NCBI GenBank assembly: GCA_948465665.1
Contig: CAOJXI010000001.1
Coordinates: 1 to 44,535 of the forward strand
DNA: 44,535 nt
Direction of reading: 5' to 3'
Source: an uncultured Clostridia bacterium
Lineage (GTDB): Bacteria > Bacillota > Clostridia > Oscillospirales > Ruminococcaceae
The notes below the pieces were generated by a model that was given only the letters and a program-made list of their open reading frames with translations, searched no databases and was not told the DNA's origin. A program made the position numbers and the translations under genes. How positions within the stretch are numbered: position 1 is the first letter of the stretch; each line of letters starts with the position of its first letter. Shown in pieces: positions 5,762 to 44,496 of the stretch.

Positions 5762-8388
5762 AACGTGAAATGAAATGGCTTAAAGAGCGCAGCCAAAAAC
5801 AGGTTCCTGTGACCTTTGGGGCGCCGTGGGGCAGGGGTGAGCTTCCAAAGGGGTCATCCCTTGCACTGATTGGCGGAGACGGTAAAGAATTCCCCTGCCA
5901 GGTAAAGCCTACCGCTTTTTGGCCGGATGGTTCTATTAAATGGACAGCCCATTCCGCTGTATTGGATACCTCTCAGAATTATACGATTTCCCTTTCAGAC
6001 GGAAAACCCGCATCCCCGGAACAGCCCGTTTCAGCTTCCGAGGATGAAAACGGCGTGACAATTGAAAGCGGCCTGCTGTCCTGCCGGGTGGAATACGGGG
6101 ATAAACTGATTTCCTCCCTTGTACGGAAGAAAGACGGCTTCCGGCCCATGAGCGGGAAGCTGGTGGCACTGATTCAGAACGAGGAACTCCACGACGACTG
6201 CGAATTCCAGTTTATCCGCCGTTTTGAAGGCGTGACCCAGCAGATTACCCTGGAAGAATCCGGCCCGATGCGGGCGGTTGTCAAGGTGGAGGGGCTTCAC
6301 AGAAGCATCGTCCCGGCAGATTCTGGCAGTGAAATCTTCCCCTTCTCCCTGCGGCTGTATTTCTACGCGGGCAGCCAGGAGATTAAGATTGTCCACTCCT
6401 TTGTATTCGATATTGACGAACATATCGATTTCTTAAAGGGGCTGGCGCTGGAACTGACGATGGAAGCTTCAGGAGAACTCTATAACCGCCATGTTGGATT
6501 TGCAGGGGAAACCGGGATGTTCTATGAAGCGGTACAGCCTGCCTACTTTAAGAATAACTGGAAATACCCTGGAACGCCTGTGCCAGAGGAAACCGCCATT
6601 TATGAACGCCAGCAGCTTGAGGGGCAATTTATTGAAATCCCGGAAGAAGGGGATTTTTCGGAGGTTGTCCATGACAATGCCTGGTGGAACAATTTCCGCC
6701 TAAGCCAAGATTCCTGCGATCATTATATTATCTCCAAAAGCACCCATGAAGAATGTGCCCAAATTACTGCTTTCCAGGGGAACCGAAGCCAGGGGGCCAT
6801 ATTCTTTGGATGTGGGTCAGGAATCATTGCAGCAGCTATCAAAGACTGCTGGCAAAAATCCCCTATGGCGTTGGAAATTCAGAACGCGGCGGAAGATCAC
6901 CCGGTTATGACCCTATGGTTGTGGAGCCGTTACGCGGAACCGATGGATTTCCGCGCCTATGACCGGAAAAGTCATACTTATGCCTATGGCGGCATCAACA
7001 ACCACCCGGAAGGGATTGCCAATACCAATGAAATCTATTTGTCCCTTTTTGGGGAGATGCCCGGAAAACAAGCTGTAATAGATTTTGCCGGCGATGTGCA
7101 GAGTGAAACCCTGCTGGTGGCAGAGCCATCAGTTTACGCTGAAACCAAAGCCCTGGGAAGCTATTGGACTGGAACTGCTGATAAATACCGTGTCCCAGCC
7201 TATGAAAAGGCATTAAAGGAAATGCAGGAGTTTTACATCCATGAAATTAAACAGCGGAGATGGTACGGCTTTTGGGATTATGGCGATGTGATGCACTCTT
7301 ACGACCCTACCCGCCATTGCTGGCGGTACGATGTTGGGGGTTTTGCGTGGCATAATACAGAACTGTGCAACACTTATGCCAACTGGCTGTATTTCCTGCG
7401 GACAGGGGATTATGAGGTATACCGTTTTGCACGCGCCATGAGCCGCCATTGCAGCGAAGTTGACACCTACCACGCCGGAAAATATGCCATGCTGGGTTCA
7501 CGGCACAATGTACGGCATTGGGGCTGCGGGGCAAAGGAAGCCCGTATTTCCATGGCGGGACATTACCGGTTTTTCTACTATCTGACTGCCGATGAACGGA
7601 TCGGGGATATTATGGACTTTGTAAAAGATGCAGACTTTACCACTTTACAGAAAGATCCCATGGGAAGTTATTTCCCGCCCCATCCCCATTTCTCACATTG
7701 CAGAACCGGCCCGGACTGGACTTCATTCCTCAGCAACTGGATGACCCGCTGGGAACGCACTGAAGACCCTAAATATCGCGACAAACTTCTCAGGAGCATA
7801 GAATCCATTAAAAAGGCCCCTCTGGGGCTGTCCTCCGGGTCTACCTTCCATTATGAACCGGAAACTGGGGAAATGCACTATATGGGGGCTGACAATCCCG
7901 CTGGGCACAGGCATCTAGGGGACGGGAATTACCAGCAGCATATGGTAATCATGTTCGGGGGCGCGGAAATCTGGTTTGAACTCTGCGAACTGCTGCAAGA
8001 CCCGGAATTTGAAAAGATGGTAGCTGATTTTGGGGAATATTATGGCATGACCCCGGAGGAGCGGAACCAGAAATCCCATGGGCTGTTTAACCCTGACAAC
8101 GACCGCTGCTGGGGCGGGATTGGCGGCAGGATGACGGCTTTTGCCGGGTATTATCTGGACAATGACCGGTATATGGAAGCAGGAGAGGAGAGCATTACCT
8201 TCCCAGCCCAGAAAATGACGCAAGCCTTTGACGAGGAAGGGAATATGCAGTTATGGGATGTGCCGGAGAAGGATGCACCATATCCCATAAAAGAAGTGTG
8301 GAACCTGACTACAAATACTACTGCGCAGTGGAGCCTAGGATATATGGAAGTGTCTAAACTTCGGGAAATACAGGAGAATAAGAAATAA
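5758..8388 (+). CDS. PcRGLX/YetA-like protein, paralog 2
   Basis: 876-aa ORF, collinear with and clearly homologous to the upstream gene (same motifs). Its start overlaps the upstream stop (ATGA), suggesting translational coupling. Confidence 0.5.
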   Translation: MKREMKWLKERSQKQVPVTFGAPWGRGELPKGSSLALIGGDGKEFPCQVKPTAFWPDGSIKWTAHSAVLDTSQNYTISLSDGKPASPEQPVSASEDENGVTIESGLLSCRVEYGDKLISSLVRKKDGFRPMSGKLVALIQNEELHDDCEFQFIRRFEGVTQQITLEESGPMRAVVKVEGLHRSIVPADSGSEIFPFSLRLYFYAGSQEIKIVHSFVFDIDEHIDFLKGLALELTMEASGELYNRHVGFAGETGMFYEAVQPAYFKNNWKYPGTPVPEETAIYERQQLEGQFIEIPEEGDFSEVVHDNAWWNNFRLSQDSCDHYIISKSTHEECAQITAFQGNRSQGAIFFGCGSGIIAAAIKDCWQKSPMALEIQNAAEDHPVMTLWLWSRYAEPMDFRAYDRKSHTYAYGGINNHPEGIANTNEIYLSLFGEMPGKQAVIDFAGDVQSETLLVAEPSVYAETKALGSYWTGTADKYRVPAYEKALKEMQEFYIHEIKQRRWYGFWDYGDVMHSYDPTRHCWRYDVGGFAWHNTELCNTYANWLYFLRTGDYEVYRFARAMSRHCSEVDTYHAGKYAMLGSRHNVRHWGCGAKEARISMAGHYRFFYYLTADERIGDIMDFVKDADFTTLQKDPMGSYFPPHPHFSHCRTGPDWTSFLSNWMTRWERTEDPKYRDKLLRSIESIKKAPLGLSSGSTFHYEPETGEMHYMGADNPAGHRHLGDGNYQQHMVIMFGGAEIWFELCELLQDPEFEKMVADFGEYYGMTPEERNQKSHGLFNPDNDRCWGGIGGRMTAFAGYYLDNDRYMEAGEESITFPAQKMTQAFDEEGNMQLWDVPEKDAPYPIKEVWNLTTNTTAQWSLGYMEVSKLREIQENKK

Positions 8389-10744: not shown

Positions 10745-13700
10745 TTATTTCCTGCGCAGGAACATTTTAAGCGCAAACACTACACCAAGGCAAACGGCCA
10801 ATACTCCAGCCAACACAAGGGGAACAAAAGATTTTTTCTCCTGTATTTCGACATCGCCGCTTGCAGCCGGGAGAGAATCCTGATTCTGGACAGGATTTTC
10901 TATAGTGGAGCTAACCGTTTCAGGGGAGGGAACGCCCTCCTCTTTGGCAGTCATATTTTTATCAGTCAGCGTTATATTTGCCTCATCCGGGGCAGAAACA
11001 GTCCAAATATTCCCGGAAGCCAGATCAGAAAGCCCAATCTGCGAGATTTCAGAATCCATCCCCTGGCCCCGAGAGAATTTTTCTTCCAATAGGGAAAGAG
11101 GGAAAAACGCCCTGTCCGGTTCAGGGGAAAGGGAATCCCCGGCAGCAATGAAAATAGGTTCCCCGCCATTCCACTGGATTAAAATGGAAGCCTGCTGGTT
11201 TTCTTCCAAAACATCCATAAAGGAAACAGGCATCCTGTCATAACCTTTTGCATTAATCCGAACCAAATCGCCTTCGGAGGAACTCTGGACGACAGCGGCA
11301 GCAGAATCCCAGAAATCCGCCTGGGCAGAGGGCAAATCCAGATCGTCAGCCTTTTGGGGTGCGGAATCAATGAAAGCTGTCTGTCCATTGCCCCCTCCAA
11401 CCAAGACATGGATTTTTGATAGGGAATCAAGTTTTAAAAGGATGTTCTGCCCATCTTTCTGGAAGGGGATGGGAACCCAGTCAGATGCTTTTTCCCCTTT
11501 TGCTTGATGGATTTCCCCAACAATATCAGCTGAGATATTATCAGGCAAGGTAAACTGAAGGAAAAAGGCCCCGATTGATTCCTGCTCCAGCGGTTCCTTA
11601 TTTTTAACCAAGCTCGGCTTTAACTCCATAGCGGAACCAGCGGTAGGCTGGAGCGGGGTAAGGGTAAGGGTGACAGAGTCGTTTATTTCAGCACTGGCAG
11701 CAGTCCCAATCCCCCAGGCAGAGGCTGAGGTTGGGGCGGGAAGGCCGGGCACAGATTCTATGGAAGTTTCCAGGGTAATATTAAGCCCGTTCTGCTGGAA
11801 CTGATCCAGGAGCTTAGCCTGTTCCAAAGTCAGGGAGCCTTTCTCACTGCCCTGAACCTTGGAAACCCCCTGGATAATGGCTTGTAAGAATTCCCGATCT
11901 TCATCTTCTAAGGTTTGGCTACTGTCACCCAGCAGTTGGCCAATATCCCCGGCAATTTCCATAATATCGGACATAGAATTTTTAGATGGGGAACCGCTGT
12001 TAATTTCGAGCAGCAAACAGGATACCGGGACAGAGGTACCTTCATACCGCAGCTCCAATAAGCCAACGCCATCCCCCATAGGAGTAGCATAAGCATCTTC
12101 AACACGGACAAGGCTGTTCCGGGAGAACCAGTAGAAATTATCAGCGGTGGGCGTTTGCCCAGGGAGGGACGCACCAAGCACCGAAACAGATATCCGAGGC
12201 AGGCGCTGCGGTTCCCCAAGGGTGTCCAGCTTGAGAAGCTGAACTTCGCCGCCATCCACATTGGCTGAGACAGTGGTGACAGGAACGCGGATTTCTTCTG
12301 TCACATCAGAATAATTCGGATCGGAAGATGTGTAATGGAAGGAAAAAGTCTGGTATGCAGATTGGTTGCTCCCCTGTAGCTTTTCAGAAGGGTCTCCTGT
12401 AAAGCTCCATCCTTTGGGAAGTTTTACATCCTCCATTGCCGGGGTACGGTTTGTAATAATATGGAGGTTGTCCATCAGGGCGCGGGTAGACTGGTACGAG
12501 GGGTTGGAAGAACCTTCCCCAGCGGTAATTTCGCCTACTGCTTGGAACGTATCATCCAAAGTATAATTAGAGGTCAGCCGCGACAAATTCAGGACAAGGC
12601 TTCCTTTGGCGCTTTTAGAAGAACCTGTTTGAGCATTGTCAAAGGATACAGAGGAAACATCAAAATCCCTGCCGAAAACAAGTTCTTCATCATTTTTAAG
12701 CCCATCCAAAGTAATAGAGGAAACCGACCCGCTTGTCAAACCGTCATAGGGCTTGGAGGGAAGATCTGCAGAAGCTACTGTCAAAGGTGCAGGCTTTATA
12801 TACAAGGGAGCAGAAACTGAACCCGCCTGTTCCGAATCCTGGTAAACAGCCCTGACCATATAAACACCTGCTTTTTCAGGTGAATCGGAAGCGTTTTCTA
12901 TAACAGAGCCATCCAGCGCAGTACCGCTGTAAGTATAGGAAAAAGCGGTGAGATTCAGGGAAATTCCCGGTTCAGCCTTGACAACAGGCTCCTCTGGAGC
13001 GTCCCCGTATACCCGGCTTTGGGAGGGAAGGGTTAAAAACGGGCTGATATCTTTCTGTCCCACTACGGAAACAGTCAGTGAAACTTTATTGCTGCCAGAA
13101 GCCCATTCCGGCAGTTCCACCTCCCCGGTAAATGTAACATCTCCCTCATAAGTGCCAAAATTATCCGGGAGGGCAGTGCGTTCCCATTGAATTTCAAGTT
13201 CTTCCTCATTTCCCGAAGAATAAACTGCCTTAGCGGTTTCAGGAAGGGAAATACCCGCTAAAGAATATCCTTCTGCTTCAACAGGAAGCAGGATATCCCC
13301 GCCAGCGCTGACAGCGGCAGCGGCAGGATGCACAACAACCCGAACCGTACAGGATACTTCATCATCATCCAGAGAGGTTTTTGCAGAAAACAGGAATTCG
13401 CCGCCCTGCGGCTCCCAATCGTCAGAATCTTCTGAAAGGGTGTATTGGACTGAAATTTCCTCCCAGGAACCATTATTATAGGAAGCGCGGACAGGGGCGT
13501 TTTGTTCCAGGTAATCCTGAATTGTATTTACGCTTTCATTCGCATCATCGTCTGCGGAAAGGGAAACAGAGTCAACAATAGGGGCTAGGGAAACCAGTTC
13601 CCTTTCCTGGAAATCTACAATCCCCTCTATTTCACGGTCACTTTCGGAAACAGTATAACGCCAAATCCAGGTATCCCCTTCACGGAAAGCAGCAGAGGCT

Positions 13701-16700
13701 TCCCCGCTGACCCCTGAAACAGAAAGGACAGGCATGTATTCACCGCTTGCTGACGCCCTCCATTCCAGAGTATCCCCAGGTTCGGCGGCAGAAAGGGGAG
13801 AACCGTTGACAAGTACCATGACAGTTCCATCCCTTTCCCCTGGGCCATCCCCCTGGGCTGTAACAGATGTAAGCGTCCTTACCCTCGCCTGGCTTGTTTC
13901 TGAACAGAAGCGTCCCTCATCGGCTGCAATGCGGGCATAAAGGACATATTCAGTTCCCGCATCCAGATTTCGGAAACTGCCTGATTCCCTCCAGCGCACC
14001 TCATCCCAATCAATGTCCTCTGTATCCTCGGCAGCGGATAAAAAGAATTCCTGGTCGTCCTCGTAGACAGCCATAATATTGTACAAACCTGCTGCTGTTT
14101 TAATAGAGGGCGGGTCTGGACGCGCCGGGATGGAAAAGGGTTCCCCATCGCTGGCAGGAGTGTCCCGGTCGCCTTTGGCGCGCATATACAAAACACCATC
14201 TGAACTTCCCGCTGCAGGAATGTATTCAGAAATGGAATCGCCATCCTCAATAATCGTTTTAAAGGCATCATCTGGGCTGACTTCATATCTTTGACCGTCA
14301 TATGTAATGGTTTCATCCTCAAAGCTGATAGCTGCTTCATCCCCCTCCGGCAGAGAAAACAAGGTGGAGAATGTACTTGGCTGGCTTTCCCCCGATGAAA
14401 AGTTTTGCTCTGTTGCAGAGACGCAGGTTTCAAAGGTATAGGAAGAAGAAGGCTCCAAGCCCTTAAAGACAGGGCTTCTCTGCCAGTTCCCGCCATTGCA
14501 GCGGTAAAGGATGTTTTCACCAGCCTCATCCAAAGTGATGGAATCCTTGCCCTTGTCCTTCAGGGCAGGGGCAGGAGGCGAATCGGGCCTTGCCGGAATG
14601 TGGAGGCCGCCTGCGGTACTGGCAAACCGGTCTTCCCCTGCGGCAACCCGATAGGACAGCGTAACCTGTTCCCCATTCTCCGGTATGCGGCCGGAAATGG
14701 ATACAGGGCCATCAGCTTCCTGGTAGTTCTCCCCATCAAAGGAATACAGAACCCCCTCCTCCAATGTAACTGTTTCCGCATAATAATCTATTTCCGCAGC
14801 CCCGGAATTATCCGGCCTTGGCGGGATGGAAACCTCAATGGGATCGCTGGCAGGCGTATCGCCGTCGGCTTTGGCGCGAAGGTACAGAGTGCGGGAGGAT
14901 TCTCCAGCTTCCGGGATATACGCGCTGATGGATCCACTGGAAATATCCCCGTCCTCTGAAAAGTCAGGGCTGGCATTTAACTCATATTGGGAAGAAAACT
15001 GAATGGTTTCCTGCTGGTAGTCTATTTCGGTCAGCACCCCTTCGGGCAGGGGCGGCTTTGTCACAAAGGTCAGCCGGGCAGGATTTGAAAGGTTTCCTGC
15101 CTTATCCTTAACCACTAAGGAAACAGTGTATTCCTCGCTGGAATCCAAATCCATAAGCGGGAAGCTGGCGGTTTCATCAATTTTGCCCAGGGAAATCCCC
15201 TCAGCAACTTCTTCTGCATCCGGCCCGTCTTCAGAGGTATCCCCGGTTTCCAGCAAATAATAAAGTTCCCCAGCCTCCCCGCTTTCAAGGGAAATAACAG
15301 CGGCATTTTCGGTAATATCCGCAACTGTTTCCCGACGGACAGAGGGTGCAGTCCGGTCAATCTGTATATGGAGGGGGTCAGAACTTGTCTCGCTGCGGCT
15401 GCCGCACAAGGAAACAGCGCGGAACCAGAAATAAGCGTCCATTTCCCGGTAAACATTAAAATCACTTTGGACGGTATCCCATTCCACATCTTTGGAGGGT
15501 TTTTCTGCTGTCTCAGTGACGCAATATTCATAACTTCCCAGCTGTTCCTCCGGGAGCCCGCCGGAAAGCTTAACAGCTACCTGTTCCCGGCTCCAGCCAT
15601 TAGCGGCGCTTATTGCCTTAACAGGAGTAAAAGCCGGGCTGTAAAGATATACCTGTATGGATTGTTCCTCGCTTTCAGCCCCAGCCCCGCTAACTGCCTT
15701 AAAGGTATAGGAAACCTGCTGGGTGGCACTGGCAGGATGGATCATTAACTGCCTGCCTGTCAGGGGAGTCCATTGCGTTCCATCGTCAATACTATAAAAA
15801 TAGGTAATATCAGAGGGAATTTCCCCTTCATCCTCTGGGGTAATGGTAAAGGTAACAGGCTGTTCCGAAGGTTCCCCTTCCTCATAAGGCTCCCCATCCA
15901 TAACAGCAGATACGGTAAACTCTGGTTTAAGGCTATCCAGTTTTACCGTATAGGGATCGCTTTCGCCCTCGCTGCCCACATTGGTTACAATCCGCACTAA
16001 GATAGAGTCCGTATAGTCCCCATCCTCATCAATCGTAAAACGGTTTTCACTGTCAGATTCCCATTCAATAGGATCGCTCCAGTGCTTTCCACCGTCAACA
16101 GAATAAGAAAATTCCTTCACGCCGCTTTCCGGCATGGGGGAGGGGGCTTTCACTGTAAGGATAACTTCCTCTGACGCCCAGCCTGACGGCACACCCTCCA
16201 GGGAAGGCTTTCCCGCTCCGGCTTTGTCAATTTTCACATCATATTCCTGGGAAGGGAGGCTTTCCAATCCGCTTTCCGATATTGCCTTGAATTCCACCTT
16301 CCGGGTACTGGATGCAGTATAAACATCCCCCTCAATAGGCACCCATTCCCCTTCGTTTATCCGAACATAATAAGTTACAGGGGAGGCAGGGGAATTTTCA
16401 CAGGAAAGGGTAAAGGTGACATCTTCATCTGTCCATTCCTCTTTATAATCTGTTTTAACCCGGCTAAGCTCTGGGTTCTGGGTATCCAGCTTATAAGAAA
16501 ATGCTGGTGCCTCTGTGGATACTCCATCCCTATCTGTGCCAGTAGCCATTAAAATAGAAAGTTCCTTTTCCCCGTCTTCTGTAATCGTTACAGAGTCGTC
16601 CCATGACCTTCCGCCATTGGCGCTGATAAACTGGAACCGTCCAGCGGAATCATTGGGCGTAAGCGTAATTTCATCGGTATACCAGCCGTTCTCCCCTTCC

Positions 16701-18508
16701 TGTCCTTCAACGTCATAGGGAAGCCCTTCAAAAACCTTTTCTTCAATAATAAGTTCGCCAGGTTCATAAATAATGGTGTAATTCTCTGTTTCCAGGCCCT
16801 CCGGCGTAATTTTCCCTGTCGCAGCTTCCCGGCTGTTATCAGGGCTGCATGAGGTAGAAAGTTCATCAAAATCAATTTCAGATTTATCCTCGCCGGGAAC
16901 CAGCCCAAGGATAGAAATATCATCCTCAGACAATTCCGGCATAGGATCCCCCATTGTAATGGTGATAGGTTCATTAACGGAAATTGTCAGTTTGGCAGGG
17001 GAAATTTCAATTGCTTTTTCCAACGGCACATCCTCCAAAGAAGATATCCCGTCCAAAGTATAATTTCCAGCGTCTTTGCCGGACAGTGAGAGGTTTTCCA
17101 AGTCAACAGAGGTATAACGCCCGACGTTTCCCGATCTTCCGCCGGAAAGGGAGCCGAGAGCTGCCTCCCCCATAATAATAACGCTGTCATCCGGCGCAGT
17201 TTCCGGCTTGCCCTCAAAGGAAATCGTATACCGCATCAAACGGCGGGAGCCATCATAAACACGGCCATAGGCGGACACTTCAGAAACGGCCAGGGGGGCA
17301 GGGCGGACTCCCACCTGTACCTGAAACTCCATTGTACCGCCGGACTTGTTATCCTCTGGAACAAAGACCATCGGATAGACCCCGGACGGGCCTGCCTTGG
17401 GCACCAGGTCAGGTTCTTTCCATTGGAATTCCCCCTTTACAGAGGCTCCAAGGCTGTCCACTACAATACCAGGCGTGATTTCCGAATTCTCTAATGTCTG
17501 CCCATAAGTAAGGTTTGCAGCAGAGGGCATTGTCTGGATTGAAAATGCACCGCCTTTGATTTCCAGTTCTGCGGCAGTTTCAGCGGCAAGGGTTCGTTCT
17601 CCAGCAGGTGTATATTCTGCCCGGAGGATATGTTTTCCCGGAAGGAGTTCCTGAACCTTTACTGAAAACGGGTATGAGCCTTCAGATGTCACCGTTTTTC
17701 GCTCTATTTCCTGGTTATCCAAATATAAAACCATTGTCCCTGCAAGGGAAGGGCGGGAACCGCCGGAAATTTCGACGGCAGCTGTTAAGCTGGAAACGCC
17801 TTTCATTGCCTCATATGTACCCTTTTCAAACCGGAAGGAAAGGGGGGAAACGGCTGGTTCCGGCTGAACTGCCTGGCTGCTGCTTTGGGAAGAGGGAACT
17901 TCAGAGGAAGCCGGCGCGCTTTGGGAAGAACTGCTGGAAGACATGGAAGGTTCCGAAGCAGTTTTTAAAGATGCAGTCTGCCGGGCATTTCCAACCAAAA
18001 CCGTAATTTGGGGGAGTTCCATTCCGCCAGGGACGGAATAGCGGTTGGGGATAACTGGTATAAAACGGTACTCCCCCTCTGCATCCCCGTTAAATTCCGA
18101 CGCGCTGCCAGCAGGATCCAAATCCCATACAACAGCAATCATTACAGATTCCCTTTCGCCCTCGTCATTGCGGATATCTGCCCGCAGCGAAACAGGGAAA
18201 CGCAGGGAACTGATATCAGTCCCCACATCAGCCCTCTGAAGCCGGATGTCTTCGGAAAGGCTGTCAAAGGAGCGAATGACAAGCCCCTCCTGTACGGATT
18301 CCTCCGGCATATCATCGCCGGTACAATTCAGATAATTTTCACGGCATACAGGACAGCTCCCATCAATACTGTCATCTGTACAATGTTTTGTGCAAATACA
18401 TGTCTGCGCCTGTATGCTTGGCGTGTCAACTGCATTGACTGTCAGAACCAGGCCAGCAGTTGTAACTGCAAGCGCCAACAGGAACGAAAGTTTCCTAAAT
18501 TTATTCAT
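10745..18508 (-). CDS. Giant cell-surface protein (2587 aa) with signal peptide, Ig/FN3-like and MBG/YDG-type repeat modules, and a C-terminal membrane anchor
   Basis: N-terminal MNKFRKLSFLLALAVTTAGLVLTVNA signal, followed by the Cys-rich CICTKHC...CPVC motif. Recurrent modules are present: IPARPD/IPPRPD linkers, (S/E)YIP(E/A)AG...LY(L/M)RAK(A/G)D.DTPASD, and YDG...GNYTL units. C-terminal hydrophobic helix FVPLVLAGVLAVCLGVVFAL followed by KMFLRRK. Confidence 0.85.
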   Translation of the reverse strand: MNKFRKLSFLLALAVTTAGLVLTVNAVDTPSIQAQTCICTKHCTDDSIDGSCPVCRENYLNCTGDDMPEESVQEGLVIRSFDSLSEDIRLQRADVGTDISSLRFPVSLRADIRNDEGERESVMIAVVWDLDPAGSASEFNGDAEGEYRFIPVIPNRYSVPGGMELPQITVLVGNARQTASLKTASEPSMSSSSSSQSAPASSEVPSSQSSSQAVQPEPAVSPLSFRFEKGTYEAMKGVSSLTAAVEISGGSRPSLAGTMVLYLDNQEIERKTVTSEGSYPFSVKVQELLPGKHILRAEYTPAGERTLAAETAAELEIKGGAFSIQTMPSAANLTYGQTLENSEITPGIVVDSLGASVKGEFQWKEPDLVPKAGPSGVYPMVFVPEDNKSGGTMEFQVQVGVRPAPLAVSEVSAYGRVYDGSRRLMRYTISFEGKPETAPDDSVIIMGEAALGSLSGGRSGNVGRYTSVDLENLSLSGKDAGNYTLDGISSLEDVPLEKAIEISPAKLTISVNEPITITMGDPMPELSEDDISILGLVPGEDKSEIDFDELSTSCSPDNSREAATGKITPEGLETENYTIIYEPGELIIEEKVFEGLPYDVEGQEGENGWYTDEITLTPNDSAGRFQFISANGGRSWDDSVTITEDGEKELSILMATGTDRDGVSTEAPAFSYKLDTQNPELSRVKTDYKEEWTDEDVTFTLSCENSPASPVTYYVRINEGEWVPIEGDVYTASSTRKVEFKAISESGLESLPSQEYDVKIDKAGAGKPSLEGVPSGWASEEVILTVKAPSPMPESGVKEFSYSVDGGKHWSDPIEWESDSENRFTIDEDGDYTDSILVRIVTNVGSEGESDPYTVKLDSLKPEFTVSAVMDGEPYEEGEPSEQPVTFTITPEDEGEIPSDITYFYSIDDGTQWTPLTGRQLMIHPASATQQVSYTFKAVSGAGAESEEQSIQVYLYSPAFTPVKAISAANGWSREQVAVKLSGGLPEEQLGSYEYCVTETAEKPSKDVEWDTVQSDFNVYREMDAYFWFRAVSLCGSRSETSSDPLHIQIDRTAPSVRRETVADITENAAVISLESGEAGELYYLLETGDTSEDGPDAEEVAEGISLGKIDETASFPLMDLDSSEEYTVSLVVKDKAGNLSNPARLTFVTKPPLPEGVLTEIDYQQETIQFSSQYELNASPDFSEDGDISSGSISAYIPEAGESSRTLYLRAKADGDTPASDPIEVSIPPRPDNSGAAEIDYYAETVTLEEGVLYSFDGENYQEADGPVSISGRIPENGEQVTLSYRVAAGEDRFASTAGGLHIPARPDSPPAPALKDKGKDSITLDEAGENILYRCNGGNWQRSPVFKGLEPSSSYTFETCVSATEQNFSSGESQPSTFSTLFSLPEGDEAAISFEDETITYDGQRYEVSPDDAFKTIIEDGDSISEYIPAAGSSDGVLYMRAKGDRDTPASDGEPFSIPARPDPPSIKTAAGLYNIMAVYEDDQEFFLSAAEDTEDIDWDEVRWRESGSFRNLDAGTEYVLYARIAADEGRFCSETSQARVRTLTSVTAQGDGPGERDGTVMVLVNGSPLSAAEPGDTLEWRASASGEYMPVLSVSGVSGEASAAFREGDTWIWRYTVSESDREIEGIVDFQERELVSLAPIVDSVSLSADDDANESVNTIQDYLEQNAPVRASYNNGSWEEISVQYTLSEDSDDWEPQGGEFLFSAKTSLDDDEVSCTVRVVVHPAAAAVSAGGDILLPVEAEGYSLAGISLPETAKAVYSSGNEEELEIQWERTALPDNFGTYEGDVTFTGEVELPEWASGSNKVSLTVSVVGQKDISPFLTLPSQSRVYGDAPEEPVVKAEPGISLNLTAFSYTYSGTALDGSVIENASDSPEKAGVYMVRAVYQDSEQAGSVSAPLYIKPAPLTVASADLPSKPYDGLTSGSVSSITLDGLKNDEELVFGRDFDVSSVSFDNAQTGSSKSAKGSLVLNLSRLTSNYTLDDTFQAVGEITAGEGSSNPSYQSTRALMDNLHIITNRTPAMEDVKLPKGWSFTGDPSEKLQGSNQSAYQTFSFHYTSSDPNYSDVTEEIRVPVTTVSANVDGGEVQLLKLDTLGEPQRLPRISVSVLGASLPGQTPTADNFYWFSRNSLVRVEDAYATPMGDGVGLLELRYEGTSVPVSCLLLEINSGSPSKNSMSDIMEIAGDIGQLLGDSSQTLEDEDREFLQAIIQGVSKVQGSEKGSLTLEQAKLLDQFQQNGLNITLETSIESVPGLPAPTSASAWGIGTAASAEINDSVTLTLTPLQPTAGSAMELKPSLVKNKEPLEQESIGAFFLQFTLPDNISADIVGEIHQAKGEKASDWVPIPFQKDGQNILLKLDSLSKIHVLVGGGNGQTAFIDSAPQKADDLDLPSAQADFWDSAAAVVQSSSEGDLVRINAKGYDRMPVSFMDVLEENQQASILIQWNGGEPIFIAAGDSLSPEPDRAFFPLSLLEEKFSRGQGMDSEISQIGLSDLASGNIWTVSAPDEANITLTDKNMTAKEEGVPSPETVSSTIENPVQNQDSLPAASGDVEIQEKKSFVPLVLAGVLAVCLGVVFALKMFLRRK

Positions 18509-18760
18509 TTGTCTGTATCCCTTCTGTTATCCCAGCCCCTCAAAGGTCTGGAAGCGTTTGCCGCATTTTTTCACTATCTCCTAGTTTATACGTTTGAGGG
18601 ATTCTTTTCAAGAGGGAAATCCATTCCAAAAGGCTGTTTTCTGCTAATTTCAGCAAAGATTGGCGGGACAGTCCCAACTGCCAGTTCAGCCTTACTGGAT
18701 TAGCAACTGGAAAATGTAAAATCCCCCTAAATTCGACCAACTCTTCTACATATAGAAAAA

Positions 18761-18793
18761 CCATAAATCCCAGCGGTTATTCCACTGGGATTT
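18761..18793 (-). terminator. Intrinsic terminator after the sortase gene
   Basis: 13-bp stem CCATAAATCCCAG/CTGGGATTTATGG followed on the minus strand by TTTTTCT. It lies 24 nt after the stop at 18817. Confidence 0.65.
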
Positions 18794-18816
18794 ATGGCCT
18801 TTATTATAAATTATCC

Positions 18817-20013
18817 TTAATAATCCTTACGTGTACCCATACCAGTAGGGGTTTTAGCATCTGTATTCGTTGTAACAGTTACATTTTTTGCAGCATCGTT
18901 GCCTTTAACCAATTTACCCATAACTACAAGCCTTTGATTTGTCTGGCGGACGCCGTTTATATAATATGCGTCAATACAGGTAGAAAGGGAAATTAACTTG
19001 TCATCAGTAGTCACAGGTATATCATAGTCAAAGAAAGAAAGGGAGCGGGCCTCTGCAATCAGATTGGAAAATTGTTTTGCTGTAAACGTAGAAGAAACAT
19101 AGTCCAGATCATTGGCATTACAAATAAAAACTGCAAAAATCTGGAAAGTCATATCCTCATATTCGGTAGAATAATAAATTTTTTGGTTCTGTTGGGCAAA
19201 ATCAAGGCGTTTAAACGGAACTAGCTGGGCAAACATAACATCTTTTGCACGGTTGGCATACGCATATCGCCAGGAATTTGTCCAATTGTGGCCAAAAATG
19301 CAGTTGTTTTGGGTCAGTGTAGAGGAATCTCCAAAATTTACAGAAGAGGAAGCCCAAATAACACCATTCTTGCTGTATTTTTTATCAATTCCCAAAGCTT
19401 CATAATAGGTATTGTTCCCATTAGGGCTTTGGAGAACAGGGTAATCTATATTTGTGCCGGAAACTTTCAGCCAAGCTTTTACATCAGAATTTTTTGCCTG
19501 CCAGGATTTAATGGTAGGCGATAAGGCAGAAACTGTTGTAGGGGTTTTTGGAGTTGAAACGGTTGGGGTATTAGATTTGGGGCTAACTGTAATGGAATTG
19601 GAACCTCCCCCAATAGAGATGGCTCCAGCTTTATTAGACGAAGACGTTCCAACAACCCTAATGCCTGTTGAACTTTCTTGGGAGTTATTATTGCTAGCGG
19701 AAGAACCACTACGCAGGGAACTGACCCTTGGGGCATATTCTTCATCGGCTTCCAGATCCCAATCCTCACCGTTTTCCAGGTCTGCAAAATAATCCCGGCC
19801 TTCTTCTTCAGCCTGCTGGCGGGCTTCCACGCTTCCTGCGAGGGCTTCTGAGCGGGTATATTCTTCATCTTCTTCGTCGTCGCGAGGACGAAGCTGAATG
19901 GCAAAAACATTCGTTGTAGCAGACATCATCATTGTTGCTGCCAGCAGCAGTGTAACGGTGCGTTTATAAAGGCTGGAATCATTTTTCAGGCTCATTTTAT
20001 AGTTCAGCTCCAT
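18817..20013 (-). CDS. srtB: Class B sortase with an extended disordered N-terminal linker
   Basis: The catalytic region NSDVKAWLKVSGTNIDYPVLQ...NNCIFGHNW...LISLSTC...RLVVMGKLV matches class B sortase signatures. N-terminal membrane anchor RTVTLLLAATMMMSATTNVFA, then an acidic/Ser-rich spacer. The start is uncertain (ATG 20013 or 19995; the ORF is open to 20067). Confidence 0.8.
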   Translation of the reverse strand: MELNYKMSLKNDSSLYKRTVTLLLAATMMMSATTNVFAIQLRPRDDEEDEEYTRSEALAGSVEARQQAEEEGRDYFADLENGEDWDLEADEEYAPRVSSLRSGSSASNNNSQESSTGIRVVGTSSSNKAGAISIGGGSNSITVSPKSNTPTVSTPKTPTTVSALSPTIKSWQAKNSDVKAWLKVSGTNIDYPVLQSPNGNNTYYEALGIDKKYSKNGVIWASSSVNFGDSSTLTQNNCIFGHNWTNSWRYAYANRAKDVMFAQLVPFKRLDFAQQNQKIYYSTEYEDMTFQIFAVFICNANDLDYVSSTFTAKQFSNLIAEARSLSFFDYDIPVTTDDKLISLSTCIDAYYINGVRQTNQRLVVMGKLVKGNDAAKNVTVTTNTDAKTPTGMGTRKDY

Positions 20014-20114
20014 TTCTGCCGTATAGAAATTACGGCTGATTTTATAATTCTTATGTGGGTTGGGCAATTACCCCATCCCCGTCTTGAAAATGTAGTGATA
20101 AAACGACTATTCAT

Positions 20115-20144
20115 ATTATAACATAAGTTTTTTCAAAATTTCAA
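20115..20144 (-). promoter_or_regulatory. Promoter candidate for the sortase gene
   Basis: Minus strand reads TTGAAA-N18-TATAAT, with TGt immediately upstream of the -10. Confidence 0.45.
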
Positions 20145-20269
20145 TGCCTTTTAAGCAAAAACTTCATCTTTTTGAAATGATTTTGTCTCCAATTTTTTAC
20201 TAATTCCGCTTTTAATTTTATTTAAAATTTAACTTGACAGATTAGGCGTTATTTATTACAATAAAAATA

Positions 20270-20359
20270 GAAAATGACGCTGCCCGGTAAACGGTCAGCC
20301 CCTAAAAGTTGGAGAAATAATCGCCGAACTTTGCGAGGGCCCGGCGATTATTTCTTTTT
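20270..20359 (+). ncRNA. Candidate antisense (antitoxin) small RNA, unit 1
   Basis: TTGACA(20234-20239)-N17-TACAAT(20257-20262). About 90 nt downstream is a 12-bp stem AAATAATCGCCG/CGGCGATTATTT followed by TTTCTTTTTGTT. The RNA would be fully complementary to the 3' end and 3' UTR of the toxin transcript. Confidence 0.5.
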
Positions 20360-20428
20360 GTTCTGTATAAACAGGTTACAAATACCAATAATTACTAAGC
20401 AAAACTGTAACAGTTCTGACAAAGTCAT
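20348..20428 (-). CDS. 26-aa hydrophobic lysine-tailed peptide, type I toxin candidate (holin-like toxin/BsrG/TxpA-like), unit 1
   Basis: MTLSELLQFCLVIIGICNLFIQNKKK. GGGGGG SD lies 7 nt upstream of the ATG. The stop codon is embedded in the terminator stem. Confidence 0.65.
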   Translation of the reverse strand: MTLSELLQFCLVIIGICNLFIQNKKK

Positions 20429-20551
20429 TAGGCATCCCCCCTTTCGCTATGTACGATCAGGGGGCAAGAAACGTTTTGGAAACTTCCCGTTCCCAAAGCG
20501 GCCCCCTGATGGGGGCTAACCGCCTACCGTTTATGGCAGCGTCACAGCTTT

Positions 20552-20580
20552 ATATTACCATATTTTTCGACATTTAGCAA
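20552..20580 (-). promoter_or_regulatory. Toxin-mRNA promoter, unit 1 (equivalents at 20910-20938 and 21271-21299)
   Basis: Minus strand reads TTGCTA-N17-TAATAT with TGg extended -10. The predicted transcript starts GUGACGCUGCC near 20545. This promoter is back-to-back with the next unit's antisense promoter. Confidence 0.5.
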
Positions 20581-20627
20581 CAATATTTTTCTTGACTGTT
20601 CTAGCGTTATCTATTATAATAAAGATA

Positions 20628-20717
20628 CAAAATGACGCTGCCCGGTAAACGGTCAGCCCCTAAAAGTTGGAGAAATAATCGCCGAACTTTGCGAGGGCCC
20701 GGCGATTATTTCTTTTT
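20628..20717 (+). ncRNA. Candidate antisense small RNA, unit 2
   Basis: TTGACT(20592-20597)-N17-TATAAT(20615-20620), with the same terminator. Confidence 0.5.
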
Positions 20718-20786
20718 GTTCTGTATAAACAGGTTACAAATACCAATAATTACTAAGCAAAACTGTAACAGTTCTGACAAAGTCAT
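20706..20786 (-). CDS. Type I toxin candidate peptide, unit 2
   Basis: Peptide and SD identical to unit 1. Confidence 0.65.
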   Translation of the reverse strand: MTLSELLQFCLVIIGICNLFIQNKKK

Positions 20787-20985
20787 TAGGCATCCCCCCT
20801 TTCGCTATGTACGATCAGGGGGCAAGAAACGTTTTGGAAACTTCCCGTTCCCAAAGCGGCCCCCTGATGGGGGCTAACCGCCTACCGTTTATGGCAGCGT
20901 CACAGCTTTATATTACCATATTTTTCGACATTTAGCAACAATATTTTCCTTGACAGTTCTAACATTATCTATTATAATAAAGACA

Positions 20986-21077
20986 GAAAATGACGCTGCC
21001 CGGTAAACGGTCAGCCCCTAAAGGTCTTTGAAACAATCGCCGATCTTTTGTGAGGAGTCCGGCGATTATTTCTTTTT
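20986..21077 (+). ncRNA. Candidate antisense small RNA, unit 3
   Basis: TTGACA(20950-20955)-N17-TATAAT(20973-20978), with a terminator whose loop has diverged but whose stem is conserved. Confidence 0.5.
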
Positions 21078-21146
21078 GTTCTGTATAAACAGGTTACAAA
21101 TACCGATGATAACTAAGCAAAACTGTAACAGTTCTGACAGAGTCAT
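21066..21146 (-). CDS. Type I toxin candidate peptide, unit 3
   Basis: The peptide is identical despite at least 4 synonymous nucleotide differences from unit 1 (ttg>ctg, gta>gtt, att>atc twice). Confidence 0.65.
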   Translation of the reverse strand: MTLSELLQFCLVIIGICNLFIQNKKK

Positions 21147-21346
21147 TAGGCATCCCCCCTTTCGCTATGTACGATCAGGGGGCAAGAAACATTCTGGAAA
21201 CTTTCTGTTCCCAAAGTGGCCCCCTGATGGGGGCTAACCGCCTACCGTTTATGGCAGCGTCACAGCTTTTATATTACCATATTTTTCGACATTTAGCAAC
21301 AATATTTTCCTTGACTGTTCTAACATTATCTATTATAATAAAGATA

Positions 21347-21436
21347 GAAAATGACGCTGCCCGGTAAACGGTCAGCCCCTAAAGGTCTTTGAAATAATCG
21401 CCGAACTTTCGAGGGGCCCGGCGATTATTTCTTTTT
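21347..21436 (+). ncRNA. Candidate antisense small RNA, unit 4
   Basis: TTGACT(21311-21316)-N17-TATAAT(21334-21339), with the terminator. Confidence 0.45.
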
Positions 21437-21505
21437 GTTCTGTATAAACAGGTTACAAACGCCAATAATAACTAAACAAAACTGTAACAGTTCTGACAGA
21501 GTCAT
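21425..21505 (-). CDS. Type I toxin candidate peptide, unit 4 (leader truncated)
   Basis: MTLSELLQFCLVIIGVCNLFIQNKKK. The SD is AGGGGGA. The upstream structured leader and promoter seen in units 1-3 are replaced by unrelated AT-rich sequence. Confidence 0.5.
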   Translation of the reverse strand: MTLSELLQFCLVIIGVCNLFIQNKKK

Positions 21506-21595
21506 TAGACATCCCCCTTGGACTTTTCTTAGAAAAAGGATACAGTTATTGAAAATGTAAGGTTTTTGAATGATAACCATAAAACAAGTATAATA

Positions 21596-21636
21596 AATGA
21601 CAGGTCAGTGAAAAAATTCACACTGCCTGTCATTTA
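21596..21636 (-). terminator. Terminator after the 176-aa gene
   Basis: 10-bp stem AAATGACAGG/CCTGTCATTT with further inner pairing, 6 nt after the stop at 21642. Confidence 0.55.
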
Positions 21637-21641
21637 TTATA

Positions 21642-22172
21642 TTATTTTTTTCTAAATAAAGTATTTATTCCATCCCATCTCATTTGTGTTCTACGGGTTT
21701 GCTCTTTATACTTTGAAACTTCTCTTATTGTTTTTCCAAGTTCTCCTGAAACTTTTCTTCCTAAAAAAGTAGCAGTAACTCCTAAAATCACCGGCACACC
21801 CAGACTTACAATTGGCTGAAGAACCTCTTTTATTTCTTTTCGGGATCCCTCAAGCATTTGGGAAACTATTGCTTTCTTTTCTTCTAGGGTTCCGTCATAT
21901 TGCAATACTATTTGTATTATCTTTTCGTATTTTTGGGAGGAAAGTCCTAGTGCAATTTGAATGGTATCCCCTAATGTCGAACAAAACGTTTCAGCTACTG
22001 AAGCTAACGCAGGAACGGCATTTATCAAAGCTGCTTGGTCTCTATATCCATATTGTACAACAGCTTGTATAATTTCTTTGCATGAACCTGAAAGATTTGG
22101 TGCTACTGCGGCGATGATTTTAGGAACTGTTTGTTTTGCCATTCTTTCTGTAATTACAATTTGTTCACTCAT
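21642..22172 (-). CDS. Hypothetical protein with one predicted transmembrane segment
   Basis: 176-aa ORF in the low-GC islet with AGGGGGGGA RBS. Hydrophobic stretch PIVSLGVPVILGVTATFLG. No family recognised. Confidence 0.5.
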   Translation of the reverse strand: MSEQIVITERMAKQTVPKIIAAVAPNLSGSCKEIIQAVVQYGYRDQAALINAVPALASVAETFCSTLGDTIQIALGLSSQKYEKIIQIVLQYDGTLEEKKAIVSQMLEGSRKEIKEVLQPIVSLGVPVILGVTATFLGRKVSGELGKTIREVSKYKEQTRRTQMRWDGINTLFRKK

Positions 22173-34720: not shown

Positions 34721-35287
34721 ATGTTTAATATGGCAGAATCCGCAAGCCGGATTAAAAACGCAAGGATCGCCAAAAACCTAACGCAGACAAACATAGCGGA
34801 CGCACTAGGGGTAAGCTATCAGGCTGTTTCTAACTGGGAGCGTGGGAATTCCATGCCGGATATTGGGAAACTGGGGGAACTAAGCGATCTGCTGGAAGTC
34901 AGCATTGAAGATTTACTGGGACATACAAGGGCTTCAAAAACCATTGAAAAGGTAATGCAAAAGGAAAATATGGAAATCAGCCTGCCGGAGCTTTCAGAAA
35001 TATCTCCGGTACTGCCGCCAGATGTTACAGAGCAGTTAGCCGGAGGGCTGAAGGCAAAGGATATAGAAGAACTGGCCATGATCGCTCCATTTGTAAGCAA
35101 AGAAAGGTTGGAGCAGATGGGCGAGGGTCTGAAGGCAGGCAGTATGGAAGATTTGGTCGTGATCGCCCCATTTGTAAGCAAAGAAAGGTTGGAGCAGATG
35201 GGCGAGGGTCTGAAAGTGGGCAGTATAGAAGAACTGTCTATGATTGCCCCGTTTGTAAGCAGGGGATTTCTGGACAAGCTGTTTTGA
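34721..35287 (+). CDS. XRE family HTH protein with a C-terminal tandem-repeat domain
   Basis: IKNARIAKNLTQTNIADALGVSYQAVSNWERGNSMPDIGKL is an HTH_3 motif. The C-terminus carries about 2.6 copies of a 27-aa repeat (IAPFVSKERLEQMGEGLK.GS.E.L). GGGAGG RBS. Confidence 0.75.
   Translation: MFNMAESASRIKNARIAKNLTQTNIADALGVSYQAVSNWERGNSMPDIGKLGELSDLLEVSIEDLLGHTRASKTIEKVMQKENMEISLPELSEISPVLPPDVTEQLAGGLKAKDIEELAMIAPFVSKERLEQMGEGLKAGSMEDLVVIAPFVSKERLEQMGEGLKVGSIEELSMIAPFVSRGFLDKLF
35081..35287 (+). repeat. In-frame 81-nt tandem repeat (about 2.6 copies) inside the XRE gene
   Basis: ATCGC(T/C)CCATTTGTAAGCAAAGAAAGGTTGGAGCAGATGGGCGAGGGTCTGAA recurs at 35081 and 35162, and partially at 35243. Confidence 0.85.
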
Positions 35288-44110: not shown

Positions 44111-44130
44111 TTCATATTTCCTGTTTTTCG

Positions 44131-44159
44131 TTGTAAAAAGTCGAATTTTGTGTTATACT
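44131..44159 (+). promoter_or_regulatory. Toxin-mRNA promoter, unit 5
   Basis: TTGTAA-N17-TATACT with TGt extended -10. It shares AA(A/T)GTCGAA spacer sequence with the promoters of units 1-3. Confidence 0.45.
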
Positions 44160-44268
44160 TCTGATGTGGCGCTGCCAAAAACGGTAGGCGGTTGGCTCCC
44201 GGCAGGGGGCCGTTCCCCCCATTGGGAATATTTCTTGGCCCCCTTACATATGAAAGGGGGGCTGCCTT

Positions 44269-44352
44269 ATGACAACAAGTGAAGTTTTACAGCTTTGCCT
44301 GGTAATCATTGGTATCTGTAATCTGTTCATTCAGATTTACAAAAAGAAATAA
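44269..44352 (+). CDS. 27-aa type I toxin candidate peptide, unit 5 (inverted relative to the array)
   Basis: MTTSEVLQLCLVIIGICNLFIQIYKKK. AGGGGGG SD lies 7 nt upstream. The stop is embedded in the terminator stem AAATAATCGCCG...CGGCGATTTATTT. Confidence 0.6.
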   Translation: MTTSEVLQLCLVIIGICNLFIQIYKKK

Positions 44353-44440
44353 TCGCCGGCTCTCCTCGCAAAAGAACGGCGATTTATTTCTTTAATTCTT
44401 TTAGCAGGGAGCCAACCGTCTGCTGGCAGCGCCCTTTTAT
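44338..44440 (-). ncRNA. Candidate antisense small RNA, unit 5
   Basis: The minus strand carries a consensus TTGACA(44470-44475)-N17-TATAAT(44447-44452). The shared hairpin is followed on the minus strand by TTTCTTTTTGT. Confidence 0.45.
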
Positions 44441-44496
44441 GTTTTTATTATATCCAAATTTACCTTTCCTGTCAACTGCTTTTCCCTTGTAAAATG

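Follow-up and report, generated by a model that had tools for sequence, protein, structure and literature searches.

A family of putative type I toxin–antitoxin modules in gut Clostridia, represented by a tandem array with a covarying 5'–3' closing helix

The subject of this report is an array of short repeated units in a contig of an uncultured Clostridia bacterium of the family Ruminococcaceae (CAOJXI010000001.1, assembly GCA_948465665.1), from which a stretch of 44,535 nt, hereafter called the window, was analyzed. Each unit of the array encodes a 26-residue hydrophobic peptide on the minus strand and a candidate antisense small RNA (sRNA) on the plus strand, and a preliminary description made from the DNA itself had taken the units for type I toxin–antitoxin modules. 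Read in the direction of the peptide, a complete unit consists of a promoter, an element A at the start of the predicted toxin messenger RNA (mRNA), a leader with several C and G tracts, a Shine–Dalgarno (SD) sequence, the open reading frame (ORF), a hairpin shared by both strands, an element A' that can pair with A, and the promoter of the sRNA, which faces the other way.

The Array and Its Units

Tandem Repeats Finder, run on the whole window, reports one array at 20249-21517, with a period of 358, 3.5 copies and 94% matches. Together with an nhmmer family profile and an alignment of the units, this places 3.6 head-to-tail units at 20232..21519 on the minus strand. By the family profile, unit 1 lies at 20232-20582, unit 2 at 20590-20940, unit 3 at 20948-21301 and a truncated unit 4 at 21309-21519, all in the same orientation. 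The preliminary description had counted four head-to-tail units, and both the orientation and the period of 358 hold up, but not the number of full units: the alignment gives three complete units and a truncated one. Unit 4 ends just 5' of its SD sequence, and the sequence upstream of that point is unrelated to the family leader. It retains the ORF, the SD, the hairpin, A' and the sRNA promoter, while element A and the leader are gone. It might be a leaderless toxin copy with an orphan A', either differently regulated or decaying. A weak promoter-like site is found upstream of it on the minus strand (21587-21614), and a strong bidirectional hairpin lies nearby, at about 21589-21641.

A fifth, diverged unit is present as a single copy on the plus strand at 44129-44479, where an inverted copy had already been noticed, and was recognized by the nhmmer family profile, by alignment and by motif matches. 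Its toxin promoter lies at 44131-44159, element A at 44168-44200, the SD at 44256-44261, the ORF, encoding the peptide MTTSEVLQLCLVIIGICNLFIQIYKKK, at 44269-44352 and A' at 44407-44433, all on the plus strand; its sRNA promoter is on the minus strand, with the -10 hexamer at 44447-44452 and the -35 at 44470-44475. Two motifs conserved among the units occur four to five times in the window, where 0.00-0.02 occurrences are expected, and the matches are thus not due to chance.

A Family of Related Units

Relatives were sought at the DNA level, with a degenerate pattern that spans ten peptide codons (QLCLVIIGIC, F being permitted at the second position). The pattern matched 17 IMG/VR viral contigs and at least 120 metagenome contigs, mostly from the human gut. 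Among the matches listed there were 112 complete units, 86 of them unique, which form 53 clusters at 90% identity and share one common layout. Three more-distant single-copy homologues with the same layout were found by a scan for the leader element in one genome per species, in a Clostridiales, a Bacillota and a Faecousia metagenome-assembled genome (MAG). Another hit of that scan, L002, was rejected as a chance match rather than a homologue.

A protein search with five concatenated peptide variants matched 29 unnamed database ORFs. Nearly all of these are over-extended at the N-terminus, and the conserved part is the last 26-30 residues, that is, the peptide itself; gene callers overlook the small ORF or give it a wrong extension. 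For the family, no model was found in Pfam, NCBIfam, PHROG or Rfam, a full-text literature search for the peptide motif found no paper, and blastn of one unit against plasmid and phage collections gave no match. The matches define an abundant family of putative type I modules in human-gut Clostridia, including the Faecousia and Clostridiales MAGs, and in their phages, and the family could serve to mark the boundaries of mobile elements in gut genomes.

Most sampled loci have a single unit. Tandem pairs occur in four (L008, L040, L080 and L135), and the array in the window is the largest in the sample, a comparison that is biased because short-read assemblies tend to collapse such repeats. A few loci depart from the common layout. 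The unit at L023:591-936 lacks A' and the sRNA promoter and would be an orphan toxin; in L087:1972-2317, A is replaced by unrelated sequence; L124:9832-10180 has an insertion within A; and in L130:6112-6560, a second, partial hairpin and A' copy follows the first. These four could act as natural mutants for the model presented below.

The Putative Toxin ORF and Its Peptide

The four minus-strand ORFs of the array encode 26-residue peptides that read MTLSELLQFCLVIIG(I/V)CNLFIQNKKK. That of unit 1 (20348..20428) encodes MTLSELLQFCLVIIGICNLFIQNKKK, in a frame that is conserved across the family; units 2 (20706..20786) and 3 (21066..21146) encode the same peptide and unit 4 (21425..21505) a variant with I16V. 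As originally noted, a GGGGGG SD sequence is found 7 nt ahead of the ATG (20436-20441 in unit 1, minus strand), shortened to GGGGG in unit 4.

Several observations indicate that this small ORF is a conserved and selected product, as the preliminary description had argued from the differences between units 1 and 3. These two ORFs do differ by four synonymous changes (TTG to CTG, GTA to GTT and twice ATT to ATC) and by no amino-acid change. For the family, variability was measured only outside the codons fixed by the search pattern. In codons 2-7 of these related units, the summed entropy at positions 1, 2 and 3 is 2.00, 1.19 and 6.12, and in codons 19-22 it is 1.76, 0 and 2.64, so that third-position variation dominates; pairwise comparison gives 6442 synonymous and 2586 non-synonymous codon differences. 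The length of the peptide changes by whole codons only, most variants having 26-32 residues. The frame that had been named beforehand as the rival product, an 81-residue ORF on the plus strand, is free of stops in only 3 of 82 units, all three from the window, and was rejected; it is the small ORF that is conserved.

The peptides of the family have a hydrophobic core and a lysine tail. The cysteine at position 10 of the window peptide is invariant in the alignment of the peptide family (A4), and a second cysteine seven residues further on, on the same face of the helix (CLVIIGIC), is widely conserved. The two cysteines and a conserved glycine suggest that the peptide could form a disulphide-linked or metal-bridged oligomer.

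Promoters, Predicted Antisense RNA and the Shared Hairpin

Each unit bears a near-consensus promoter on the plus strand, as the preliminary description had stated: in all four units of the array it matches 11-12 of the 12 consensus positions. In unit 1, the promoter (TTGACA-17-TACAAT) is at 20234-20262, and those of units 2, 3 and 4 are at 20592-20620, 20950-20978 and 21311-21339. From promoter scans, folding and the promoters of the family, the antitoxin gene of unit 1 was placed at 20234..20362, with a predicted transcript of about 95 nt from roughly 20269 to 20362. This transcript is predicted to fold into a small 5' hairpin followed by a 16-bp terminator. Among 53 non-redundant units, 48 have an sRNA promoter that matches at least 10 of 12 consensus positions; the -35 is TTGACA in 42 units, and the -10 is TATACT or TATAAT in 45. 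At the level of sequence, the family therefore has a gene for an RNA complementary to the toxin mRNA, and this gene is equipped with a promoter and a terminator of its own.

The toxin promoter is a poorer one. That of unit 1, read from the sequence, combines TTGCTA, a 17-nt spacer and a TG-extended TAATAT (20552..20580, minus strand), and those of units 2 and 3 follow about 358 and 718 nt further on. Across the family, the toxin promoter typically matches 7-8 of the 12 positions, and the TG extension is present in 44 of 53 units. A strong antitoxin promoter combined with a weak toxin promoter is what is expected of a type I module.

Between the ORF and A' is a hairpin common to both strands, which RNAfold predicts with a 16-bp stem in unit 1 (20311..20356). 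The hairpin and the U-run that follows it on the plus strand reach the lysine and stop codons, the U-run of the sRNA terminator being the complement of the lysine codons; an overlap of the terminator with the stop codon had been described before and is found here. A tail with at least five U in 8 nt follows the hairpin in the sRNA direction in 21 of 50 units and in the mRNA direction in one. It is proposed that the shared hairpin terminates only the sRNA and that the toxin mRNA reads through it. Within the unit, variation is greatest in the loop of this hairpin and in the spacer that separates it from A' (columns 365-385 of alignment A2), in contrast to the conserved stems. The copies in the window show the same, for example between the loops at 20327-20340 and 21045-21060. 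A possible role of the loop is recognition, by which paralogous modules would be insulated from each other.

A Helix That Closes the Toxin mRNA

Element A, which reads GACGCUGCC-AUAAAC-GGUAGG-CGGUUAGCCCC in unit 1 (20512..20543, minus strand), makes up the first ~32 nt of the predicted toxin mRNA and would form the 5' arm of a helix that closes the molecule. It recurs on the same strand at 20870-20901 in unit 2 and 21230-21261 in unit 3. Its partner, A', is located past the shared hairpin, and its sequence is exactly complementary to the 5' region of the sRNA. In unit 1, this 3' arm lies at 20276..20302 on the minus strand and is identified by covariation, by an excess of G.U pairs and by the fold of the full transcript; the corresponding elements are at 20634-20660 in unit 2, 20992-21018 in unit 3 and 21353-21379 in unit 4, the last with no partner A in cis.

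Duplex prediction with RNAduplex on the whole 80-nt flanks gave too high a background, and the 26 A:A' pairs were instead counted on a plain MAFFT alignment (A2) of 52 non-redundant units. Of all cells, 92.7% are paired, compared with 30-51% in controls in which the register was slid. Changes on both sides of a pair were seen for 23 of the 26 pairs, in 82 cells, a level reached by none of 500 shuffles (10.3 ± 1.8 pairs and 24.9 ± 4.6 cells). The cells that are not Watson–Crick pairs are strongly biased, with 146 G.U or U.G against 39 A.C or C.A, and 44 of the 52 sequences lean the same way. A bias of this kind can arise only where selection acts on pairing within RNA that has the sense of the toxin mRNA, and the toxin mRNA must therefore contain A', which is consistent with the near-absence of U-tails after the shared hairpin in the toxin direction. 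Directly after A' comes a U-rich tract, with a mean of 7.1 U per 12 nt.

One subfamily (e.g., L006, L008, L009 and L024) has an extra 5' hairpin, GGAAAGAAUNAUCUUUC, just ahead of A. The GGAAAG within it could pair with a CUUUCU after A' and extend the closing helix by 6 bp, and the 5' end of the sRNA in this subfamily bears the same AGAAAG.

Alternative Helices around the Ribosome-Binding Site

Four tracts that can pair with one another precede the start codon: C1, with which A ends, then G1, C2 and the SD. In unit 1, the switch region, as judged from folds and from co-variation of the tracts, extends over 20442..20511 on the minus strand and includes C1 (CCCCC), G1 (CAGGGGGC) and C2 (GCCCCCUG). 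An extra hairpin, UUUGGGAAC...GUUUCCAAA, is inserted between G1 and C2 on this strand and is specific to the tandem units of the window. The tracts change jointly in the family; one subfamily, for example, has CUCC/GGAG in all four. They were compared without an alignment, MAFFT having failed to hold the four tracts in register. Cognate C1:G1, G1:C2, C2:SD and C1:SD duplexes were each more stable than those of permuted partners, with none of 2000 permutations reaching the cognate value in any of the four cases. The existence of co-varying alternative helices is thus well supported.

The folds indicate how the closing helix may act upon these tracts. For the full transcript of unit 1, the predicted fold has an energy of -134.9 kcal/mol (z = -10.4) and includes both A:A' and G1:C2, whereas without A' the same transcript forms C1:G1 and C2:SD. 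Over the family, the SD has a predicted median probability of being unpaired of 0.16 in the full transcript, compared with 0.03 in a transcript that is cut short at the hairpin or has its sRNA-complementary region blocked. Relative to the blocked form, the full form is predicted to leave the SD more open in 27 sequences and less so in five; relative to the truncated form, the numbers are 27 and two. The direction and the size of an effect on translation are only suggested by these models.

Comparison with Known Type I Systems

The closest studied system is bsrG/SR4 of the Bacillus subtilis SPbeta prophage, which with bsrE/SR5 and bsrH makes up the BsrE-G-H group of T1TAdb; like the peptides of the window, those of this group are short, hydrophobic and end in KKK. 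In the bsrG mRNA, a long helix is formed between nt 1-35 and nt 232-262, and the SD is held in a 4-bp G-C helix; when the 3'-overlapping SR4 binds, nt 1-33 become single-stranded and the SD helix grows from 4 to 8 bp (PMC3834814). The leader of the window units, which had seemed to be of an unrecognized kind, corresponds to what was probed there, namely a 5'–3' closing helix with anti-SD hairpins (PMC3834814). In both systems, the present one by prediction, a convergent sRNA overlaps the toxin mRNA at its 3' end and also covers the end of the ORF, a long helix joins the 5' end of the mRNA to a 3' segment and so closes the molecule, and the ribosome-binding site is within a G-C helix. The target of the sRNA includes the 3' arm of the closing helix, so that the 5' arm would be freed and the leader would refold, as reported for bsrG (PMC3834814) and as predicted by the folds of unit 1. 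A further likeness is location on a prophage or mobile element, which for the array is a probable one. As to differences, there is no detectable homology at the RNA sequence level, the window peptide has 26 residues compared to 38 for BsrG, and its family has the invariant Cys10 in the CLVIIGIC motif. The 3' arm lies past the hairpin that terminates the sRNA, whereas in bsrG it comes before the mRNA's own terminator, and the present family has four co-varying C/G tracts, with two anti-SD partners plus a decoy.

The TxpA family (Hol_Tox, PepG1), with txpA/RatA and sprG/SprF, has the same 3'-overlapping antisense layout and, at the N-terminus, resembles the present peptides in the motif M-[ST]-x-[YS]-E-x-L. 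The peptides of the present family are much shorter than TxpA, which has 59 residues. Peptides of two distant relatives, L003 and L001, match Hol_Tox (PF16935) with E = 6e-4 and 0.03 (20.0 and 14.6 bits, below the cut-off of 23.3) and NCBIfam PepG1 with E = 0.0076 and 3e-4 (score 20.4, below the cut-off of 70), and another variant matches a PHROG holin family with E = 0.002, also below threshold. A remote relationship between the peptide and the TxpA/BsrG/SprG group is possible. TxpA-like genes had already been noted in Clostridiales (PMC2887945).

Long-distance pairing between the ends of the mRNA, here supported by covariation, and metastable leader structures are shared with hok/Sok, with its fbi-tac fold-back, and with aapA1/IsoA1. 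In hok/Sok, the antisense RNA targets the 5' leader or the translation-initiation region of an overlapping frame, mok. The antisense RNA predicted here instead overlaps the 3' end, and a mok-like overlapping leader ORF is lacking: no conserved upstream overlapping ORF was found in the family, and the N-terminal extensions of the database ORF calls are not conserved. The models also suggest that the 5'–3' helix slightly opens the ribosome-binding site rather than locking it as in hok and aapA1. With the par locus of pAD1 (Fst/RNA II), the units share convergent RNAs, a common bidirectional hairpin and a second interaction element near the 5' ends. In par, direct DNA repeats make the 5' ends of the two RNAs complementary, while here the repeat is inverted, and the 5' ends of sRNA and mRNA are therefore of the same sense and would compete for A'.

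Proposed Mechanism

Each unit is probably a type I toxin–antitoxin module with a logic like that of bsrG/SR4, and the tandem array an ordinary local amplification of it. Sequence comparison shows the ORF and both promoters to be conserved, the closing helix and the tracts to co-vary, and the hairpin to be directional. The transcripts, the toxicity of the peptide, the direction of the switch, a part for RNase III and the biological role are what the model would predict from them. The type I interpretation of the preliminary description is thereby strengthened, through selection on the ORF, the antisense promoter, the directional hairpin and the sub-threshold toxin matches. Its impression that four-fold amplification is unusual is not upheld: type I loci are known for tandem duplication, and Fozo et al. 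in 2010 made it a criterion in their search for such loci (PMC2887945). The units would accordingly represent a well-supported new family, though not a new principle.

According to the model, the weak TG-extended promoter would give rise to a minus-strand toxin mRNA of ~280 nt that encodes the 26-residue membrane peptide, and the strong convergent promoter to a plus-strand sRNA of ~95 nt. The sRNA would be fully complementary to the 3' part of the mRNA, covering the last codons, the shared hairpin and A'. The hairpin would stop the sRNA only, and the toxin mRNA would continue into A', which would pair with A at the 5' end in a helix of ~26 bp and close the molecule. In this closed state, C1 would be held inside the helix and G1 would be paired with C2, leaving the ribosome-binding site weakly masked. 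Once the sRNA occupies A', the 5' arm would be freed, C1 and G1 would pair, and C2 (or C1) would clamp the ribosome-binding site. The long duplex between sRNA and mRNA would probably also be cut by RNase III.

The closing-helix mechanism has so far rested mainly on one probed example, bsrG/SR4. The 52 non-redundant natural variants analyzed here offer unusually clear comparative support for a 5'–3' closing helix combined with a four-tract switch, and with the family one could test, in a compact system, how an antisense RNA drives an mRNA to refold.

Weighing the Alternatives

A number of results weigh against a bsrG-like module. Because the sequences in which covariation was counted are related, there are fewer independent events than the cell counts given above would suggest. 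With A' present, the SD mainly pairs with C2 in 28 of 51 minimum-free-energy structures, and its predicted accessibility never exceeds about 0.36; these mixed folds and low values make the direction and size of the translational effect uncertain. The likeness to holin-like toxins that had been claimed for the window peptides stands for the distant relatives, which match Hol_Tox below threshold, but not for the window peptides themselves, which gave no match to Pfam and NCBIfam toxin models at E ≤ 10. A search of the whole window against Rfam, which had been proposed for the leader, gave no match at gathering thresholds, and at E ≤ 10 the region 20000-21700 gave only noise, such as miRNA models, and no antitoxin family. 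Finally, no conserved dedicated terminator was found after A', a separate U-tailed hairpin being present in only 23 of 52 units. The position of the 3' arm beyond a terminator that serves only the opposite strand, together with the conserved U-rich tract that follows, has suggested a further role for A:A': this helix could serve the toxin mRNA as intrinsic terminator, the loop being the entire message. The antitoxin, whose 5' end is a copy of the 5' end of the mRNA, would then compete for A' and control termination and read-through, in tandem arrays into the next unit, in addition to translation, with the hypervariable hairpin loops insulating paralogous units. This combination of ideas has a slim chance of being correct.

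Also unlikely is a type I module that works like hok/Sok or AapA1/IsoA1, in which the 5'–3' helix locks the mRNA in an untranslatable form until trimming of the 3' end removes A' and activates it, the sRNA serving mainly to trigger degradation. Locks of this kind are established in hok and aapA1, the models keep most of the ribosome-binding site paired whatever the state, even in the full-length form, and a helix that buries both ends would be expected to shield the mRNA from exonucleases. In the models, however, removing or blocking A' makes the site less accessible (median 0.03 versus 0.16), the sRNA is complementary to A' itself and would thus compete with the lock rather than await processing, and the closest studied layout, bsrG/SR4, operates in the opposite way. 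A very unlikely proposition is that the peptide is no toxin but another conserved small membrane protein under antisense control, such as a phage peptide for lysis timing, superinfection exclusion or signalling. This would agree with the below-threshold match (E = 0.002) to a PHROG family that has a holin annotation and with the frequent occurrence of units in prophage-like contigs, beside repressor genes and an Ltp gene; but no lysis gene has a fixed place among the neighbouring ORFs, and a heavily masked ribosome-binding site, a weak toxin promoter facing a strong antisense promoter and tandem copies are the signature of a product that is kept off (PMC2887945). That the unit is nothing but a miniature mobile or repeat element, bounded by A and A' as terminal inverted repeats and with ORF and promoters incidental, is scarcely credible, even though a unit of ~350 bp flanked by imperfect inverted repeats of ~30 bp, scattered over many genomes and sometimes in tandem, has the appearance of one. 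The mismatches between the repeats are biased to G.U on one strand, 146 versus 39, an RNA-level signature on which this candidate was rejected; moreover, conservation reaches past the repeats into both promoters, the ORF is under codon-position selection, and no transposase is found among the ORFs that neighbour the unit.

Genomic Context

No protein gene travels with the unit, as judged from 125 neighbouring ORFs at related loci. The commonest neighbours among these ORFs are phage-type helix-turn-helix repressors (five), large serine recombinases (three), resolvases (two) and phage integrases (two), and a capsid gene and an Ltp lipoprotein gene are also found. Type I loci tend to be duplicated in tandem and to be located on mobile elements, and both tendencies are seen in the sample. 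In the window, the array is flanked on one side by a sortase gene and a gene for a 2587-residue CD1107-like surface protein and on the other by a resolvase gene, which is adjoined by arginine-biosynthesis genes. The array would thus appear to lie at the edge of an integrated mobile element or a segment resembling one, where its role is most likely that of a stabilizing or addiction module.

The surface protein gene and the sortase gene that follows it occupy 10745-20067. The protein has a CD1107-like N-terminus typed as mobile-element-associated, followed by YDG, MBG, fn3 and Big_4 domains, and with the sortase it would be typical cargo of a conjugative element. A 96-residue ORF at 8474-8764 matches the RelB antitoxin domain (E = 1.6e-7) and may be part of a type II toxin–antitoxin module on the same mobile-element-like segment. 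A second tandem repeat, with a period of 81 (27 codons), 2.7 copies and 84% identity, is found at 35043-35261, inside an ORF at 34721-35287, and is probably a repeat at the protein level. At 3017-8388 are two adjacent paralogous genes for proteins of 914 and 876 aa, each with all three PcRGLX-like domains; their products appear to be rhamnogalacturonan-lyase-like enzymes.

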